Shown one piece after another: positions 4,784 to 64,000 of a stretch of DNA of 64,000 bases. Made by a program: the position numbers and the translations under genes. Source of the DNA: Patescibacteria group bacterium (GTDB taxonomy: Bacteria; Patescibacteriota; WWE3; JAUXAW01; JAYEID01); contig JBMCWH010000002.1 in assembly GCA_048621635.1 (NCBI GenBank), positions 2,227 through 66,226 of the forward strand. The letters are read 5' to 3'. The first letter of the stretch is position 1. Each line of letters opens with the position of its first letter. The notes beneath the pieces are model-generated. The model was not told the origin of the DNA and did not search any database. It saw only the letters and a list, made by a program, of their open reading frames with translations.

Positions 4784-6325
4784 ATGTTACAGAATAAGTC
4801 AAAATCCAAATCAAGATCTCCCGAGAAAAGCCACATTAGACCGCCTGCTGTGGCGGGGTCTTTTTATCCTGCGGATGAAGATATTCTTTCCCAAGAAATA
4901 GAAAATTACCTAGCAGATGTAGAATTAGAAAAGGAGATAGGAAGAGTAAAAGTGTTGATTGTCCCTCATGCCGGACTGCGGTTTTCCGGAAAAGTTGCAG
5001 CGCATGGCTTCAAGGCTCTCCAACGCAAGGGGTTGGAGAGGGTTGTTCTTATCGGGTCTAGTCACCAGTATCCGGTTCGGGGAGCAGTAGTTGATAATCA
5101 TGCTTATTGGCAAACCCCTTTGGGTAAAGTTTCCGTTGATCAAGAGTTTGCTCGGATTTTAGCCGAGTCTGTATCCGGAATTACTTTGGATTCCGAACCA
5201 CATAAACAAGAACATTCTTTGGAAATTGAGCTCCCTTTTCTGCAAACTGTTTTGGGTGATTTCAAAATTGTGCCAATTTTAATTAACAATAGATCTTCCC
5301 AGTTAATTGACCAGATGGCTCAGTATCTTAGTAAAAATGGAGGAAAAGCTACGGTTGTAGTAATTAGTTCTGATCTATCGCATTACCCTTCTCATTCTGA
5401 TGCTAATAGGATAGACAAGGAAACGATAGATGCTATTACATCCGGTTCTGTTGCTCATTTTTTAGATGTAGTTGAAAAAGATATTGGGTCGGTAACAAAT
5501 CTAGCCACCCGAGCTTGTGGAGAAGTTCCAATTGTAGTTGGAATGGAAACAGCTAAAAATTTAGGTGCGAAAGACATTAGATTACTGAAATATGCTAATT
5601 CTGGTGATGTAACTGGTGATAAAAGAAGGGTGGTAGGCTATGCAGCTATTGCTTTTCCAATGGAGAAGCCAACTTCTGAAAAAGATAATGCTAGTCTTTT
5701 TGAAAGAGGTACTAGGGACGGAGGGAGTAGCCAAGGGAATGAGAAAGAGCAATCTTCAGAAACTACACCAGCCAGCTTAGGAGAAAACCAGCAGCAACTT
5801 CTTCTCAATCTTGCTCGGGAAACACTGGAATGCTTTGTGAGAGAAGGCGAAATTCCGGAGTTATCGGTGGATGATCCATCCTTACAAGAACAGCTAGGTG
5901 CGTTTGTAACACTTAAAAAGCCAGAAGATGAGCAAAATTTGCGTGGTTGTATGGGTGTGATTGAGGCAAAGAGGCCTTTGTGGAAAGTTGTTCAAGATCG
6001 TACGGTAGCTGCTGCTTCTAAGGACCCCCGTTTTTTACCAGTTACTCCGGATGAATTAGATAATATCGAAATTGAGATTTCTGTGCTTTCTAAGCCAAGG
6101 CTAGTTGATGATCCCAGTGAAATAGAATTAGGAAAACACGGAGTTATATTGGAGAAAAATGGGCGCGGTGGGGTCTTTCTTCCTCAGGTAGCAGAAGAAA
6201 CTGGATGGGATCTGGAGAATTTTCTTGGGCACCTGTGTACGCACAAAGCAGGGTTAAGACCAGATTGTTGGAAATCTTCCGAGACTTGCCTCTTCATATT
6301 CACAGCGCAAGTTTTTCCAGAATAG
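4784..6325 (+). CDS. Fusion of MEMO1-family protein (AmmeMemoRadiSam system protein B) and AMMECR1 domain (system protein A)
   Basis: The N-terminal half has RPPAVAGSFYPAD...VLIVPHAGLRFSG...SSDLSHY (MEMO). The C-terminal half has LGAFVTLKK...LRGCMG...DPRF.PV...IEISVLS...GVFLPQV..E.GW (AMMECR1). They are joined by a Ser/Glu/Gly-rich linker. Confidence 0.85.
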   Translation: MLQNKSKSKSRSPEKSHIRPPAVAGSFYPADEDILSQEIENYLADVELEKEIGRVKVLIVPHAGLRFSGKVAAHGFKALQRKGLERVVLIGSSHQYPVRGAVVDNHAYWQTPLGKVSVDQEFARILAESVSGITLDSEPHKQEHSLEIELPFLQTVLGDFKIVPILINNRSSQLIDQMAQYLSKNGGKATVVVISSDLSHYPSHSDANRIDKETIDAITSGSVAHFLDVVEKDIGSVTNLATRACGEVPIVVGMETAKNLGAKDIRLLKYANSGDVTGDKRRVVGYAAIAFPMEKPTSEKDNASLFERGTRDGGSSQGNEKEQSSETTPASLGENQQQLLLNLARETLECFVREGEIPELSVDDPSLQEQLGAFVTLKKPEDEQNLRGCMGVIEAKRPLWKVVQDRTVAAASKDPRFLPVTPDELDNIEIEISVLSKPRLVDDPSEIELGKHGVILEKNGRGGVFLPQVAEETGWDLENFLGHLCTHKAGLRPDCWKSSETCLFIFTAQVFPE

Positions 6326-12971: not shown

Positions 12972-13524
12972 CTTTTCCTCCACCTTCTTTTCTATAATCA
13001 TATTCTGGGTTCTGTTCCAGTGTTTTGGCCAAAGTTATCGACCAGCCATCCCACTGGTTTTTGTCAAGTGCTTTTTCGACAGATTCTGCCCACTCTTTGG
13101 CTTCTGAGCAAGTTTGTGGAACCTTCAATTGGCCAGAGAAATCGTCCGGATGCGTGCCTCTGGGAATTTGGGAGACTGCAGCCCAGAAACAGCCTTCCCG
13201 TTCCGCCTTTGGGTTGTTTGTAAAACAGTAATCCTCACCTGTTACGGTGTGTACTATTTGTTCCCAAGCAAGGTACCAGGATTCTCCTGCGTCTACTTTG
13301 ACAGTGTAGTATTCATCGCCTTTACCAAGAATTCCCTCATCGAGAAGCTTTTGAACCTCTTTTTCAGAGATCTTGTTAGCATTGTCCTTTTCAAGTGTGC
13401 TTGATTCGGCTTTAGTAGTTTCTAATTCATGGGGTTCACCTTCGCTGTTTTTACTACAGCCGCAAAAACTTGCACAAAGGGCAATCACCACCAGCAACAC
13501 AATTATTCCTTTTCCAAGCCTCAT
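12964..13524 (-). CDS. Lipoprotein, unknown function
   Basis: Signal peptide with a lipobox-like ALCASFCGC. AGAAAGGA lies upstream of the ATG. Confidence 0.6.
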   Translation of the reverse strand: MRLGKGIIVLLVVIALCASFCGCSKNSEGEPHELETTKAESSTLEKDNANKISEKEVQKLLDEGILGKGDEYYTVKVDAGESWYLAWEQIVHTVTGEDYCFTNNPKAEREGCFWAAVSQIPRGTHPDDFSGQLKVPQTCSEAKEWAESVEKALDKNQWDGWSITLAKTLEQNPEYDYRKEGGGKDE

Positions 13525-13567
13525 TGTCTCGATCCTTTCTACTATCTAGTGAGTTTTTAATGTGCAA

Positions 13568-13597
13568 GAAAAAAATAAATCTGCCAGAAGGCAGATT
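13568..13597 (-). terminator. Hairpin plus T-run inside the 5' leader of the lipoprotein operon (attenuator-like)
   Basis: AATCTGCC-AGAA-GGCAGATT (13578-13597). On the minus strand it is followed by TATTTTTTTC. It lies between the predicted promoter and the RBS. Confidence 0.45.
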
Positions 13598-13624
13598 AGA
13601 ATAAATTAAATATTATCCACTAGG

Positions 13625-13653
13625 ATTATAACATAAGGGAACACTGCTGTCTA
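13625..13653 (-). promoter_or_regulatory. Sigma70-like promoter (TAGACA-17 nt-TATAAT) on minus strand
   Basis: -35 at 13653..13648 and -10 at 13630..13625, with TGt immediately upstream of the -10. Confidence 0.5.
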
Positions 13654-13711
13654 TTTATTTTGTATCCTTATGTTCTAGGTTATGGGGCTATCAGGCTGTT
13701 CATTTTTCGGT

Positions 13712-13749
13712 AAAAAGAAGTCCGAACTTCTGTATAGAAGTTCGGACTT
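13712..13749 (-). terminator. Rho-independent terminator for gene 13762-14349
   Basis: 14-bp perfect stem AAGTCCGAACTTCT-GTAT-AGAAGTTCGGACTT (13718-13749). A T-run follows on the minus strand. Confidence 0.75.
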
Positions 13750-13761
13750 GTGTTTCTAATG

Positions 13762-14349
13762 TCATGCTGCAACAGCTTTTTTTTGGTCATTTTCCATTAA
13801 TTCAAGAGTTATCCTTACGGATATTGTGAGGAAACTTAAGAAAAAGGCGAAAAAGATGACTAAAAGATCTTCTGAGAAAGTGATAACTGCTGTGTCCACT
13901 GCAGTAGCTAGTAATCGTGCTTGTAAGCTTAATGATGGATTCGATTCCATCCAGCTACCTACTAAATTGGTTCCAATATCGTACCCAACCATAGTTAAGT
14001 TAAGTATGCGTAAAGCTTTAAACTTAAGTACATTCGTAAAGGGGAGTATTTCTTGTGGTGCTCTCTTCTTGACAAGAGAAAGCATCTCCCGATTCACGAA
14101 CCACAGCTGAAGTTCGCTTACTGTGGACAAAAGGCTTAGTGTCCATGCTACGACTGAAGACACGCCGATTGCAATCAGCGGGTTGACACTTAGGATTAGA
14201 TCCCGCCAAAAGCTTTCGGCTAAGTAGTAACAGACGAACGCGGTGATGACCGTCAAGAACCACAAAGTTATAATGCTTATGGTATCTAAGATTTTTTGGG
14301 CTAACGCTTGGCCTGAAACTCTGTTTCTTTCTCTTTCTGCAGTTGCCAT
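13762..14349 (-). CDS. Hypothetical integral membrane protein (about 4 TM segments)
   Basis: Hydrophobic segments. GGAAGGGAG lies upstream of the ATG and a strong terminator lies downstream. Confidence 0.55.
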   Translation of the reverse strand: MATAERERNRVSGQALAQKILDTISIITLWFLTVITAFVCYYLAESFWRDLILSVNPLIAIGVSSVVAWTLSLLSTVSELQLWFVNREMLSLVKKRAPQEILPFTNVLKFKALRILNLTMVGYDIGTNLVGSWMESNPSLSLQARLLATAVDTAVITFSEDLLVIFFAFFLSFLTISVRITLELMENDQKKAVAA

Positions 14350-14573
14350 TTTCTGCTCCCTTCCTAATTAATTTTAAATGTACAAGTTCACTTGTATATA
14401 ATATATGCTATAAGACTTAATTTGTCAACTCTAGTTGCTGGCAAAGAAAGTTAGTTCAATTGTATTGATCATTAATAAACTTTGCTTAAGTGTGTGTCTT
14501 TCGTAAAATCTAAAGCTGTGGTAAAATTATCTCCGTAGAGGTATAGGACATATATAGGAAAAATTGAGAATGC

Positions 14574-14625
14574 GGGTCCGTAGCTCAGCTAGGCAGAGCA
14601 TCCTGACAAGTAGGGAGTGTCCTGA
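14574..14625 (+). pseudogene. tRNA 5' fragment (acceptor 5' strand, D-arm, defective anticodon arm, variable loop; no T-arm or 3' acceptor strand)
   Basis: GGGTCCGTAGCTCAGCTAGGCAGAGCA...GTGTCCTG parallels tRNA-Lys at 14903. The similarity ends inside the T-stem and no CGGACCC 3' strand exists downstream. Confidence 0.6.
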
Positions 14626-14634
14626 TCTCTAATC

Positions 14635-14855
14635 ATGTTTTTCGTTTACATAATAAGAAGCAAGCATGATCGGTCCTTATATGTTGTGGGGATGTTAGGG
14701 AGAGAATTGAACGACATAATCGCGGTGCTAGCAGGTATACTAAATCCAAGCGGCCTTGGAAATTAGAACATACCGAAGAATACAAAACTAAGAAGGAGGC
14801 ATTGAAACGAGAGAAATATTTGAAGGGTTTGAAAAGTAGAGATTGGAGTATTTAA
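14635..14855 (+). pseudogene. Small GIY-YIG nuclease-family gene (YhbQ/UPF0213-like) with a 1-nt frameshift
   Basis: Frame A gives MFFVYIIRSKHDRSLYVVG. The -1 frame gives DVRERIERHNRGASRYTKSKRPWKLEHTEEYKTKKEALKREKYLKGLK. The switch is at the G-run 14688-14691. Confidence 0.65.
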
Positions 14856-14902
14856 TAGAGAACGGAAAATTGCCCTGGGAGTAATGTTCGAGAAAAAGTG
14901 TT

Positions 14903-14980
14903 GGGCCCGTAGCTCAGCTTGGCTAGAGCACTGGCCTTTTAAGCCAGGTGTCCTGGGTTCAAATCCCAGCGGGCTCACCA
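14903..14980 (+). tRNA. tRNA-Lys (anticodon UUU), CCA encoded
   Basis: Manual cloverleaf: GGGCCCG/CGGGCTC acceptor, anticodon loop CTTTTAA, T-arm CTGGG-TTCAAAT-CCCAG. Confidence 0.9.
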
Positions 14981-15012
14981 CTTTTTCTCGAAATTTCTAT
15001 ACTTCTATACGG

Positions 15013-15090
15013 GGCCCCATCGTCTAGCCCGGTCTAGGACGCCAGGTTTTCATCCTGGTAACACCGGTTCAAATCCGGTTGGGGTCACCA
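15013..15090 (+). tRNA. tRNA-Glu (anticodon UUC), CCA encoded
   Basis: GGCCCCA/TGGGGTC acceptor, D-arm GTCTAGCCCGGTCTAGGAC, anticodon loop TTTTCAT, T-arm ACCGG-TTCAAAT-CCGGT. Confidence 0.9.
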
Positions 15091-15206
15091 TACTTTTATC
15101 AACCATTTTACCTCCACCTCTGTGTTTTTGTGTTATAATTACCGTGGTTAGGCGGTTCTTTAATTTTCCATGATGGTAGTTCTTAGGAAATAAGGGAGGT
15201 GGATGG

Positions 15207-16274
15207 ATGTTTGGGTTAATATCGAAACTTTTTCAGGGCCGGCAGGAAAAAAAAGGGGGAAAAGGGAAGGAGGCATGGAAAGAAACGATTGATCGGCATT
15301 TAGAAGAGGAATGGAGAAAGGAAGAAGAAGCGAGGAAAAGAAGAGCCGCTGTGGCAAGAAGAAAAGCCAAACGGCAGAAGGAAAGGCTGCTAGCCGAACA
15401 TCAAGAAAAGTTCAGATGCCCTTGCTGCGGAAAACCTTCACCCTGGCCCCGCAAAAAGGTGAGGGAAGTTGAAGGAGAGCACAGTTCTTGGTATGAAAAG
15501 ACTAGTATGGACGATTGGGATAAACCGCACAAGGATTGGAAGAAATGTAGTATATGCGGACGTTGGATTTGTCCTGACTGTATTTATAAGAGTTACTGCC
15601 GAATCTGTGCTGACGCAATAGCGAAAGGTGAGTCCGCGAAACAAAGAAGAAAGCGGCTGAAAAAAGAAAGAGAGGAACGCCAGCGCAGAAGAGAAGAAGC
15701 GGCGAGAGAAGAAGAAATGCAGCAGCTTCGGGAGTTGTGGCAACGCTTGGAAATAGACAAATTGGTAGAAATGGTTGCTAATTCAATGTGGCCAAATGAA
15801 CCAGACCTGAAGATAAGAGGGCCGAAAGAAGAGTTTAGAACTTTTGTGCATGAATTTCCTTGCCGAATCTCCGAGATAGAAGGTTCTCTTGAGGGCTTGT
15901 TTAACCTTAGGGAGGGGTATTGTAAGCCGAGGCAGGCAAAAAAGAGAGTGATTTACCTGCGTTTTGAGCTTAAACCCGACGAGCTGGTTATTTTTGAACC
16001 AAATAAGAAAACTTTGTACTATCCAAGTGATTCTTTTTTCAATCAGGGATATGGTTGGGAAGGCTGCCTTTGCAGGTTGCAGATTCGGGAAGATATGAAG
16101 CCGGAGGACGTTCTGAGCCAAGCAGAAAGTATGTTGGTGGAACATTGGTCATGGGAATCAGGAGCAGATGATGGGAAAACTCTTGCAGAGAGAACGCAAA
16201 GTATAAAGGAATTTAGAAAGCATTTGGAGAGCTATTCTGAAGCACTCCACGAGTATATAGAGGCGACCAGTTAG
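15207..16274 (+). CDS. Hypothetical Lys/Glu/Arg-rich protein with two CxxC pairs (zinc-ribbon-like) and an unknown C-terminal domain
   Basis: AAGGGAGGTG lies upstream of the ATG. Contains CPCCG...CSICGRWICPDC...CRIC. No family recognised. Confidence 0.6.
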   Translation: MFGLISKLFQGRQEKKGGKGKEAWKETIDRHLEEEWRKEEEARKRRAAVARRKAKRQKERLLAEHQEKFRCPCCGKPSPWPRKKVREVEGEHSSWYEKTSMDDWDKPHKDWKKCSICGRWICPDCIYKSYCRICADAIAKGESAKQRRKRLKKEREERQRRREEAAREEEMQQLRELWQRLEIDKLVEMVANSMWPNEPDLKIRGPKEEFRTFVHEFPCRISEIEGSLEGLFNLREGYCKPRQAKKRVIYLRFELKPDELVIFEPNKKTLYYPSDSFFNQGYGWEGCLCRLQIREDMKPEDVLSQAESMLVEHWSWESGADDGKTLAERTQSIKEFRKHLESYSEALHEYIEATS

Positions 16275-19537: not shown

Positions 19538-19612
19538 GGGGCTGTAGCTCAGCGGCAGAGCACTTGCATGGCATGCAAGGGGTCAGGGGTTCAAATCCCC
19601 TCAGCTCCACCA
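19538..19612 (+). tRNA. tRNA-Ala (anticodon GGC), CCA encoded
   Basis: GGGGCTG/CAGCTCC acceptor with G3:U70, anticodon loop ATGGCAT, T-arm AGGGG-TTCAAAT-CCCCT. Confidence 0.9.
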
Positions 19613-63857: not shown

Positions 63858-63936
63858 AAATTTATTATCTGTCACCCTTCGCTAAACTCACTACTAGGTC
63901 CCGACCAGTCGGGACCTAAGCTCGGAGAGCGTAAGG

Positions 63937-64000
63937 TGGTGCCTCCGAGAGGATTCGAACCTCTAACCTTGGGCTTAGAACACCCTTGCTCTAATCCATT
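63937..64000 (-). tRNA. tRNA-Arg (anticodon UCU), 3' part; 5' end lies beyond the window
   Basis: The reverse complement reads ...GAGCAAGGGTGTTCTAAGCCCAAGGTTAGAGGTTCGAATCCTCTCGGAGGCACCA. T-arm, acceptor 3' strand and CCA are clear. The anticodon stem has an A-A mismatch. Confidence 0.7.

Follow-up and report, generated by a model that had tools for sequence, protein, structure and literature searches.

Bacteria very commonly encode standalone minimal GIY-YIG proteins (UPF0213/COG2827). Structures of such proteins have been solved for about 20 years, yet no role is known for them. A survey of the superfamily assigned no function to this group and described neither a linkage to transfer RNA (tRNA) genes nor pseudo-tRNAs for it (Dunin-Horkawicz et al. 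2006, PMC1564403). Bacillus subtilis YazA, BH0048 (PDB 1ZG2) and EF2693 (PDB 1YWL) are likewise without an assigned function or a reported tRNA linkage. These three proteins are the closest by sequence to, and of the same minimal size as, the product of a broken gene that we analysed in a stretch of 64,000 nucleotides (hereafter the window) from a Patescibacteria group bacterium (GCA_048621635.1, contig JBMCWH010000002.1, positions 2,227 to 66,226). The gene lies between a tRNA fragment and an intact tRNA-Lys(UUU) gene. We consider it probable that this feature is the dead remnant of a mini GIY-YIG cassette nested in a tRNA gene, and that the cassettes form a family that has been gained and lost. 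The family is widespread and apparently undescribed; a full-text search of the literature returned no description of tRNA-linked mini GIY-YIG genes or of hairpin-bearing pseudo-tRNAs, which is not proof of novelty.

The locus reads, on the plus strand, pseudo-tRNA (14574-14634), open reading frame (ORF; 14635-14884) and intact tRNA-Lys(UUU) (14903-14980; ARAGORN, and Rfam at 68.4 bits), the last being the functional copy in whose gene the cassette is nested. The 5' block of the pseudo-tRNA (14574-14600), comprising the acceptor 5' strand and the D-arm, copies tRNA-Lys positions 1-28 (14903-14930) with 25 of 28 columns matching. The anticodon arm is replaced by a degenerate hairpin at 14601-14616, TCCTGA-CAAG-TAGGGA (TCCTGACAAGTAGGGA). 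The remainder (14617-14634), a variable loop, the T-stem 5' strand and a T-loop remnant, matches tRNA-Lys positions 46-63 (14948-14965) in 14 of 18 columns and abuts the ATG. Outside the anticodon arm 39 of 46 columns match, the Lys-specific GTGTCCTG included; the initial annotation had given roughly 80 percent identity. As noted there, no 3' acceptor strand exists: the T-stem 3' strand and the acceptor 3' strand are both missing. That annotation had ended the fragment at 14625, inside the T-stem; it runs through the T-loop to 14634, against the ATG. A T-loop-like remnant, GTTCTTA, precedes the ATG at the same place in a Flavobacteriaceae tRNA-Asp cluster described below, and the tandem units of one surveyed locus (L112) also stop within the T-loop. 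We rejected a complete or unusual tRNA at 14574: ARAGORN found none there, and an Rfam scan of the stretch 13500-16000 gave no tRNA match to the fragment at E<=10. The anticodon arm, noted earlier as oddly short, is indeed odd, as the remnant of a conserved family hairpin and not through random decay.

Downstream of the fragment, a GIY-YIG (UPF0213/Slx1-like minimal) pseudogene occupies 14635-14884 on the plus strand. As first described, its halves lie in different frames that switch at a GGGG run, and the repaired window protein matches PF01541 (E=4.3e-13, 49.8 bits against a cut-off of 22.6; residues 1-69 of 73 covered); the 3' half alone matches at E=8.7e-10, and no NCBIfam model matches the window protein. 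One added G does reopen the frame, but the lesion is not a one-nucleotide slip. Compared with an intact homologue (locus L004, below) it is a 7-nt deletion at about 14691/14692, in the YIGSTGD region, and it puts Y16 in another frame than R26, H30 and E62. A second, window-specific deletion of 4 nt at 14841/14842 masks the original stop. The ancestral reading frame ended in ...GVLEYLIENGKLPWE followed by TAA at 14882-14884, 18 nt before tRNA-Lys; the gene was therefore about ten codons longer than the end at 14855 assigned to it earlier and carries at least two frame-breaking deletions. The public GenBank annotation holds only a 58-residue 3' piece (P0001). The window copy is a pseudogene of the GIY-YIG family and not an active member, with no present function other than as part of the tRNA-Lys/Glu leader.

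Through a flanking gene of 195 residues we found three further assemblies of the locus. One (L001) is identical to the window; the other two, L002 (GCA_048622755.1) and L003 (SRR29060558), represent a sister strain that is 99.7% identical to the window over 8.6 kb. Besides the shared 7-nt deletion, the sister strain has lost 1 nt at 14672/3 and acquired a GAG>TAG stop, and it retains the 4 nt missing from the window at 14841/2; its hairpin homologue, TCCCGACAAGTAGGGA, is also degenerate. Because independent assemblies of the sister strain share the frameshift and bear further lesions, it is not a sequencing error, which the initial annotation had allowed for at the homopolymer. It appears that the ORF was killed first by the 7-nt deletion common to both sampled strains and that each strain then added lesions of its own. 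Between the window and L002 (7762-16346), 11 of 19 substitutions and both indels fall within 14604-14879, a span of 276 nt from the hairpin to just before tRNA-Lys, where divergence is about 4% as against about 0.1% elsewhere. This excess is larger than relaxed constraint alone would predict; exchange of alleles between the flanking tRNA repeats may lie behind it, or mutation linked to transcription.

The intact homologue, P0002, is a protein of 86 residues, 70% identical, encoded at L004 (GCA_964476415.1). Here the order is pseudo-tRNA-Lys with a perfect hairpin, ATG, 86-residue ORF, a 17-nt gap and tRNA-Lys(UUU). The 5' copy of tRNA-Lys, GGGTCCGTAGCTCAGTTAGG...TCCCGATTTATCGGGA...GGGTCCTTTGATA, is the same as the locus's own tRNA-Lys for its first 20 nt, and a perfect hairpin of 6 bp with a tetraloop, TCCCGA-TTTA-TCGGGA, stands in place of the anticodon arm. 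Since L004 shows the same layout of fragment, ORF and tRNA-Lys with an intact ORF, the window fragment partly duplicates the intact tRNA-Lys(UUU) beside it. No isoacceptor was lost, contrary to what had been proposed, and translation lost nothing because tRNA-Lys stays intact. Cassette remnants flank tRNA-Lys on both sides in L004.

To place this locus, GIY-YIG paralogues were surveyed for their position relative to tRNA genes, a check that the initial annotation had called for. The survey, seeded by an alignment of three proteins, comprised 160 loci (80 from GTDB genomes and 80 from JGI metagenomes) from Bacteroidota, many Patescibacteria lineages, Ignavibacteria, Planctomycetota, Verrucomicrobia, Acidobacteria and others; 151 of the 173 matches were intact ORFs and 22 were broken. 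The association is very strong. Among the 143 ORFs having at least 150 nt on both sides, 100 have a tRNA gene within 100 nt and 72 within 30 nt; as a control, only 1.8% of all other bases at these loci are as near to a tRNA as 100 nt. The 116 ORFs found within 300 nt of a tRNA all share its orientation, and the pairings of isoacceptor and side number at least 36. A partial copy of the same tRNA (score of at least 28, against a shuffled maximum of 24) stands in the far-side flank of 93 of the 110 tRNA-adjacent ORFs. These data suggest that the initial reading, a tiny nuclease-encoding unit that landed in a tRNA gene and decayed, was right in its essentials, and that the window copy is an entry point to a whole cassette family.

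The cassettes come in two orders. In 'pseudo-ORF-tRNA', the order of the window, the copy begins at or near tRNA position 1 and the ORF mostly overlaps the first 10-24 nt of the intact tRNA; in an aligned tRNA-Asp cluster the ORF stop is the TAG of the D-loop. In 'tRNA-ORF-pseudo', the ATG mostly lies 0-13 nt past the tRNA 3' end, and alignments of the Val, Ala and Arg clusters place the ORF stop in the D-loop of the pseudo-copy, which continues to the tRNA 3' end. In either layout one acceptor strand of the pseudo-tRNA is missing, and both orders were found inside one cluster (Arg-ACG). ORFs occur in tandem at several loci (L004, L027, L028/L112, L055, L059, L106, L116, L141 and L160). At L128, two ORFs (381-653 and 751-999) lie on either side of a single tRNA-Pro(GGG), so both orders can occupy one tRNA together. 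Arrays of 2 to 5 or more tandem pseudo-tRNA units without an ORF were also seen (L014 2370-2771, L026 2084-2774 and L112 1153-1501; also L052 and L075), with periods of about 82, 120 and 168 nt and a hairpin for the anticodon arm in each unit; the units of the L014 array have two hairpins each, one of them in the place of the D-arm.

The same hairpin motif marks the pseudo-tRNAs of many isoacceptors in many phyla. Its consensus is TCCCGA-N3-5-TCGGGA: it starts with TCC, ends with GGA, and is perfect, GC-rich and usually at the position of the anticodon arm. Within 150 nt of the ORFs, TCCCG...CGGGA hairpins have a density of 0.86 per kb; elsewhere the density is 0.077 per kb, and those elsewhere are mostly within the pseudo-tRNA tandem arrays (L014, L026 and L112). 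In 59 of 70 cases the left edge falls at linear tRNA position 22-28, and the tRNA sequence resumes at 29, 36 or 43-45; occasionally the hairpin replaces the D- or T-arm instead (L014, L016, L026 and L041). The hairpin is kept although the synonymous sites of the ORFs are saturated, and the Val cluster has a compensatory stem change (TCACAT/ATGTGA versus TCACGT/ACGTGA). As a comparison bearing on whether the hairpin acts as RNA or as DNA, mismatch types were counted: among single-mismatch hairpins, a small and noisy sample, G.T/T.G pairs (4) were not enriched over A.C/C.A pairs (9). Searches of seven well-formed loci against Rfam at E<=0.05 matched only the intact tRNAs, with no family for the hairpin pseudo-tRNA. 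The hairpin consensus also stands at sites that are not tRNA-like (L079 161-178 and 5254-5271; L070 2753-2768 and 5150-5165; L165 1637-1652, at a contig end), and in some genomes it may also be a dispersed repeat resembling repetitive extragenic palindromic (REP) elements.

The window holds one perfect hairpin of the family, second to the degenerate one at 14601-14616: TCCCGACCAGTCGGGA, at 63899-63914 on the minus strand, the only match in the window, with 0.00 expected from 100 shuffles. Upstream of it on that strand, a tRNA-Arg(UCU)-like gene (63937-64000, minus strand, cut by the window end; Rfam tRNA, 35 bits) has its 3' end about 22 nt away, and the intervening 63915-63936, CTCCGAGCTTAGG, resembles a copy of the 5' end of that gene. 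Because no GIY-YIG ORF is present there, 63899-63936 is probably the solo pseudo-tRNA scar of a second cassette.

Gain and loss could be followed at one orthologous site. The DUF58 gene that precedes the Eudoraea copy led, through its orthologues, to three isolates with the same Flavobacteriaceae locus, dnaE-thioredoxin-DUF58-tRNA-Asp. Eudoraea adriatica (L008), L007 and L022 have a filled tRNA-Asp site at this locus, in which the insert separates tRNA positions 22 and 23 and has positions 1-22 repeated at its end. The site is empty in Maribacter luteus and Muriicola sp. Z0-33 (L169 and L171), with neither ORF nor hairpin, and a promoter-like flank, GTATATTTGCAC(A/T)CGCTAAACGCCAC, directly abuts a single intact tRNA-Asp. 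An identical or very similar promoter-like flank adjoins the pseudo-tRNA in L022, L007 and L005; in place of this flank, L008 has a hairpin-like remnant and then TAAAATCATT ahead of the pseudo-tRNA. Ulvibacterium marinum (L170) has a scarred site, in which a hairpin, half a hairpin (TACTCGGGA) and the ORF-tail remnant TAAAATCATT precede the tRNA and no ORF is left. This is insertion and deletion dynamics at a single orthologous site; a given empty site may be ancestral or may have been left by precise excision. Presence/absence polymorphism, a criterion for homing endonucleases, was thus observed at the tRNA-Asp site of these relatives and not at the window locus.

The cassette ORFs encode 80-93 residues, the GIY-YIG catalytic core only, and the protein was placed in the minimal Slx1-like clade of UPF0213/COG2827 as a standalone core nearest to BH0048 and EF2693 (P0002 matches 1ZG2 at E=3e-7 and 1YWL at E=9e-7). 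Y5, Y16, G18, R26, H30 and E62 are at least 95% conserved across the 151 intact ORFs, and for this reason most copies should be active enzymes. Within clusters the ratio of nonsynonymous to synonymous divergence (dN/dS) is 0.08-0.45, with dS often saturated; by this measure the intact copies are evidently under purifying selection. Of the protein pairs with at least 60% identity, 161 have their tRNA species in common and 22 do not, the latter often involving isoacceptors of one amino acid. The acceptor strand of the pseudo-copy covaries with the local tRNA, which points to local duplication or gene conversion, and the synteny of the flanks is mixed. A promoter scan found 3 sites against 2.1 expected. 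Searches of phages gave 14 weak matches, and the one annotated match inspected (a Rhizobium phage) had no annotated tRNA beside the gene; plasmids gave 2 matches, including B. subtilis yazA, and IMG/VR gave 1. On account of this near-absence, an origin in phages or plasmids was rejected.

How a cassette might enter a tRNA gene can be outlined from these layouts. Entry would be a duplicative, homology-dependent event, either nuclease-stimulated homing or a Campbell-type crossover of an excised circle, in which a unit made of the hairpin-bearing pseudo-tRNA and the ORF recombines with a chromosomal tRNA. If the crossover fell 5' of the hairpin, within the D-arm block, 'pseudo-ORF-tRNA' would result, and one 3' of it, in the T-arm block, would give 'tRNA-ORF-pseudo'; an intact tRNA would be regenerated either way, and only such products would be viable. 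Tandem ORFs and solo pseudo-tRNA arrays would fit repeated events at the regenerated target. The ORF is presumably co-transcribed from the tRNA promoter. As for the hairpin, it could bar the spare copy from serving as a tRNA or as a target by disrupting the site, block recombinational loss, or be the recognition structure of the nuclease. A bolder version, which we regard as doubtful, makes the hairpin pseudo-tRNA a specificity partner: the 85-residue GIY-YIG core would bind it as a transcript or as a DNA hairpin, and its tRNA-derived arms would steer the enzyme to the cognate tRNA gene. If true, this would be nucleic-acid-guided homing by an OMEGA/HEARO-like logic, with a GIY-YIG fold and a tRNA as scaffold. 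Three features would then make sense: the tie of a protein without a DNA-binding domain to more than 20 tRNA species, the constant match between pseudo-copy and local tRNA, and the retention of the hairpin despite synonymous saturation.

Several points weigh against a cassette that moves into tRNA genes. Neither nuclease activity nor a target site nor an act of transfer has been seen. No DNA-binding domain accompanies the nuclease core, given ORFs of 80-93 residues and a Pfam match spanning 1-69 of 73. A filled allele keeps an intact tRNA, so an enzyme cutting inside the tRNA would cut its own host allele; immunity of the filled allele would need a site spanning the upstream flank and the region past position 22. 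No near-identical copies were seen at different tRNAs, and the 161 to 22 preponderance of pairs sharing a tRNA means that movement is slow or mostly site-specific. About 30% of the homologues, including one mostly Patescibacteria cluster, do not adjoin a tRNA, and a scan of 20 such loci at Rfam gathering thresholds found no other RNA gene beside the ORF. Two peptide patterns served to retrieve the surveyed loci, which therefore represent this clade and not the UPF0213 proteins as a whole. No empty site was found for the locus in the window itself; in that search the sole distant homologue (P0006, L165) of the 355-residue gene downstream was without upstream tRNAs. Finally, long persistence, purifying selection and partial synteny also fit a host function.

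That last possibility, a domesticated or cellular module serving host tRNA biology (processing, quality control, regulation of tRNA operons or defence) whose window copy became dispensable and decayed, is unlikely in our view. The low dN/dS with saturated dS, the conserved hairpin, flanks that are syntenic within families, and the near-absence from phages, plasmids and IMG/VR would all be expected of it; the strict co-orientation and the overlap with tRNAs imply co-transcription, and prokaryotic Slx1-like domains occur fused to a COG4123 methyltransferase and to an orthologue of the TrmH tRNA methyltransferase (PMC1564403). A host module sits poorly, however, with a patchy distribution in which orthologous sites are empty and scarred, with the spread over at least 36 isoacceptor and side combinations, with tandem ORFs and solo pseudo-tRNA arrays, and with broken copies in 22 of 173 matches. 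Moreover, with one acceptor strand missing in either layout, the pseudo-tRNA cannot be an ordinary tRNA-like RNA.

The remaining explanations concern the window alone and fare worse. That the fragment is the wreck of a different tRNA gene, an isoacceptor destroyed when the nuclease gene landed, could be argued from an anticodon arm wholly unlike that of tRNA-Lys(UUU); it is very improbable given that the divergent arm is the family hairpin, that the rest, GTGTCCTG included, matches tRNA-Lys in 39 of 46 columns, that L004 pairs its fragment with tRNA-Lys likewise, and that fragments copy the adjacent intact tRNA in 93 of 110 family loci. An intact, functional gene, its frameshift a homopolymer sequencing error or a programmed one, would account for a frame switch at a GGGG run that one extra G reopens; we give it almost no credence, with a lesion common to three other assemblies, an additional 1-nt deletion and in-frame TAG in the sister strain, 7-nt (in the YIG motif region) and 4-nt deletions against the intact homologue, and 11 of 19 inter-strain substitutions packed into these 276 nt. 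Mere coincidence, in which an old tandem tRNA duplicate decayed beside an unrelated small gene, draws on the blastn-short comparison inside the window, where fragment and tRNA-Lys share only a 13-nt exact match (E=0.087). The identical layout in L004, and the recurrence statistics, strand bias and conserved hairpin over 160 loci, make such an accident close to negligible. Two described kinds of element were also considered and rejected: an integrase-mediated tRNA-targeting island, as the insert is only about 0.3 kb with no tyrosine or serine recombinase in or near it, and a group I intron, as no Rfam intron family matched at E<=10 and a complete tRNA, not a 3' half, follows the ORF.

The window is otherwise a chromosome segment of 40% G+C with genes including ClpC-like, UvrABC and Memo-AMMECR1 genes; the last is an ORF of 513 residues at 4784-6325 in which Memo-like (PF01875) and AMMECR1 (PF01871) domains are fused. 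The ORFs around the insert of about 0.3 kb encode a membrane protein, an amidase, DUF389 and TauE proteins and unknowns, and no integrase or recombinase is among them. Two further tRNA genes are present, tRNA-Glu(UUC) at 15013-15090 (ARAGORN, Rfam) and tRNA-Ala(GGC) at 19538-19612 (ARAGORN). All three complete tRNA genes of the window encode the 3' CCA, and their sequences look rather archaeal-like (GGGCCCGTAGCTCAGC...). Reading directly from the window sequence, we found that a perfect 14-bp leader-trailer inverted repeat brackets tRNA-Lys on the plus strand, with its 5' arm, TTCGAGAAAAAGTG, at 14887-14900 and its 3' arm, CACTTTTTCTCGAA, at 14979-14992, beginning within the encoded CCA. L004 has at the equivalent place a 10-bp pair of other sequence, GAGAGGAAAT/ATTTCCTCTT, which is still complementary, so the pairing is conserved; the repeat may be part of the cassette or a processing stem. 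The ORF at 15207-16274 encodes 355 residues, K/E/R-rich with several CxxC pairs and no Pfam match, and has one distant homologue only, at 37% identity, among 5.8 billion proteins.

Nesting of a large clade in partly duplicated tRNA genes offers concrete, testable biology for UPF0213/COG2827 proteins, and isolates are at hand, with a filled site in Eudoraea adriatica DSM 19308 and empty ones in Maribacter luteus and Muriicola sp. Z0-33. For annotation, the cassettes explain partial tRNA matches and truncated 'GIY-YIG nuclease family protein' calls in metagenome-assembled genomes, the 58-residue call here included, and such tRNA fragments should not be taken as a signal of lost isoacceptors.

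Among described systems, the free-standing endonuclease ORFs of fungal mitochondria insert into a host gene along with a partial duplicate that keeps the gene functional, and GC-rich mobile hairpin elements have been found near such ORFs. They differ from the cassettes in being organellar, in having protein-coding targets and in encoding larger enzymes, and the likeness is only a lead. The Seg family of phage T4, with SegB in a tRNA gene cluster (PMC2330249), resembles the cassettes in having a GIY-YIG domain, in lying among tRNA genes without an intron or intein, and in an inheritance that is presumably tied to a nearby conserved target. Seg proteins, however, have about 200 residues or more with DNA-binding domains, where the cassettes encode the catalytic core only; Seg genes lie between tRNA genes with no duplicated tRNA and no hairpin-marked pseudo-tRNA; and they belong to a phage, whereas the cassette family is chromosomal. 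With OMEGA/HEARO systems (IscB and TnpB) the cassettes share a small nuclease gene beside a conserved non-coding structure that stems from an end of the element itself, but the nuclease folds are unrelated and the pseudo-tRNA has neither an Rfam family nor any sign of a guide role. Like the tRNA-targeting integrative elements, that is, phages and integrative and conjugative elements (ICEs) with their attachment (att) sites, the cassettes leave an intact tRNA and a partial direct repeat at the far end of the insert. In contrast to them, the cassettes carry no integrase or recombinase and duplicate either the 5' or the 3' part of the tRNA, with a conserved hairpin in the spare copy. The cassette would thereby be a very small tRNA-targeting genetic element, of about 0.3 kb and needing no integrase.

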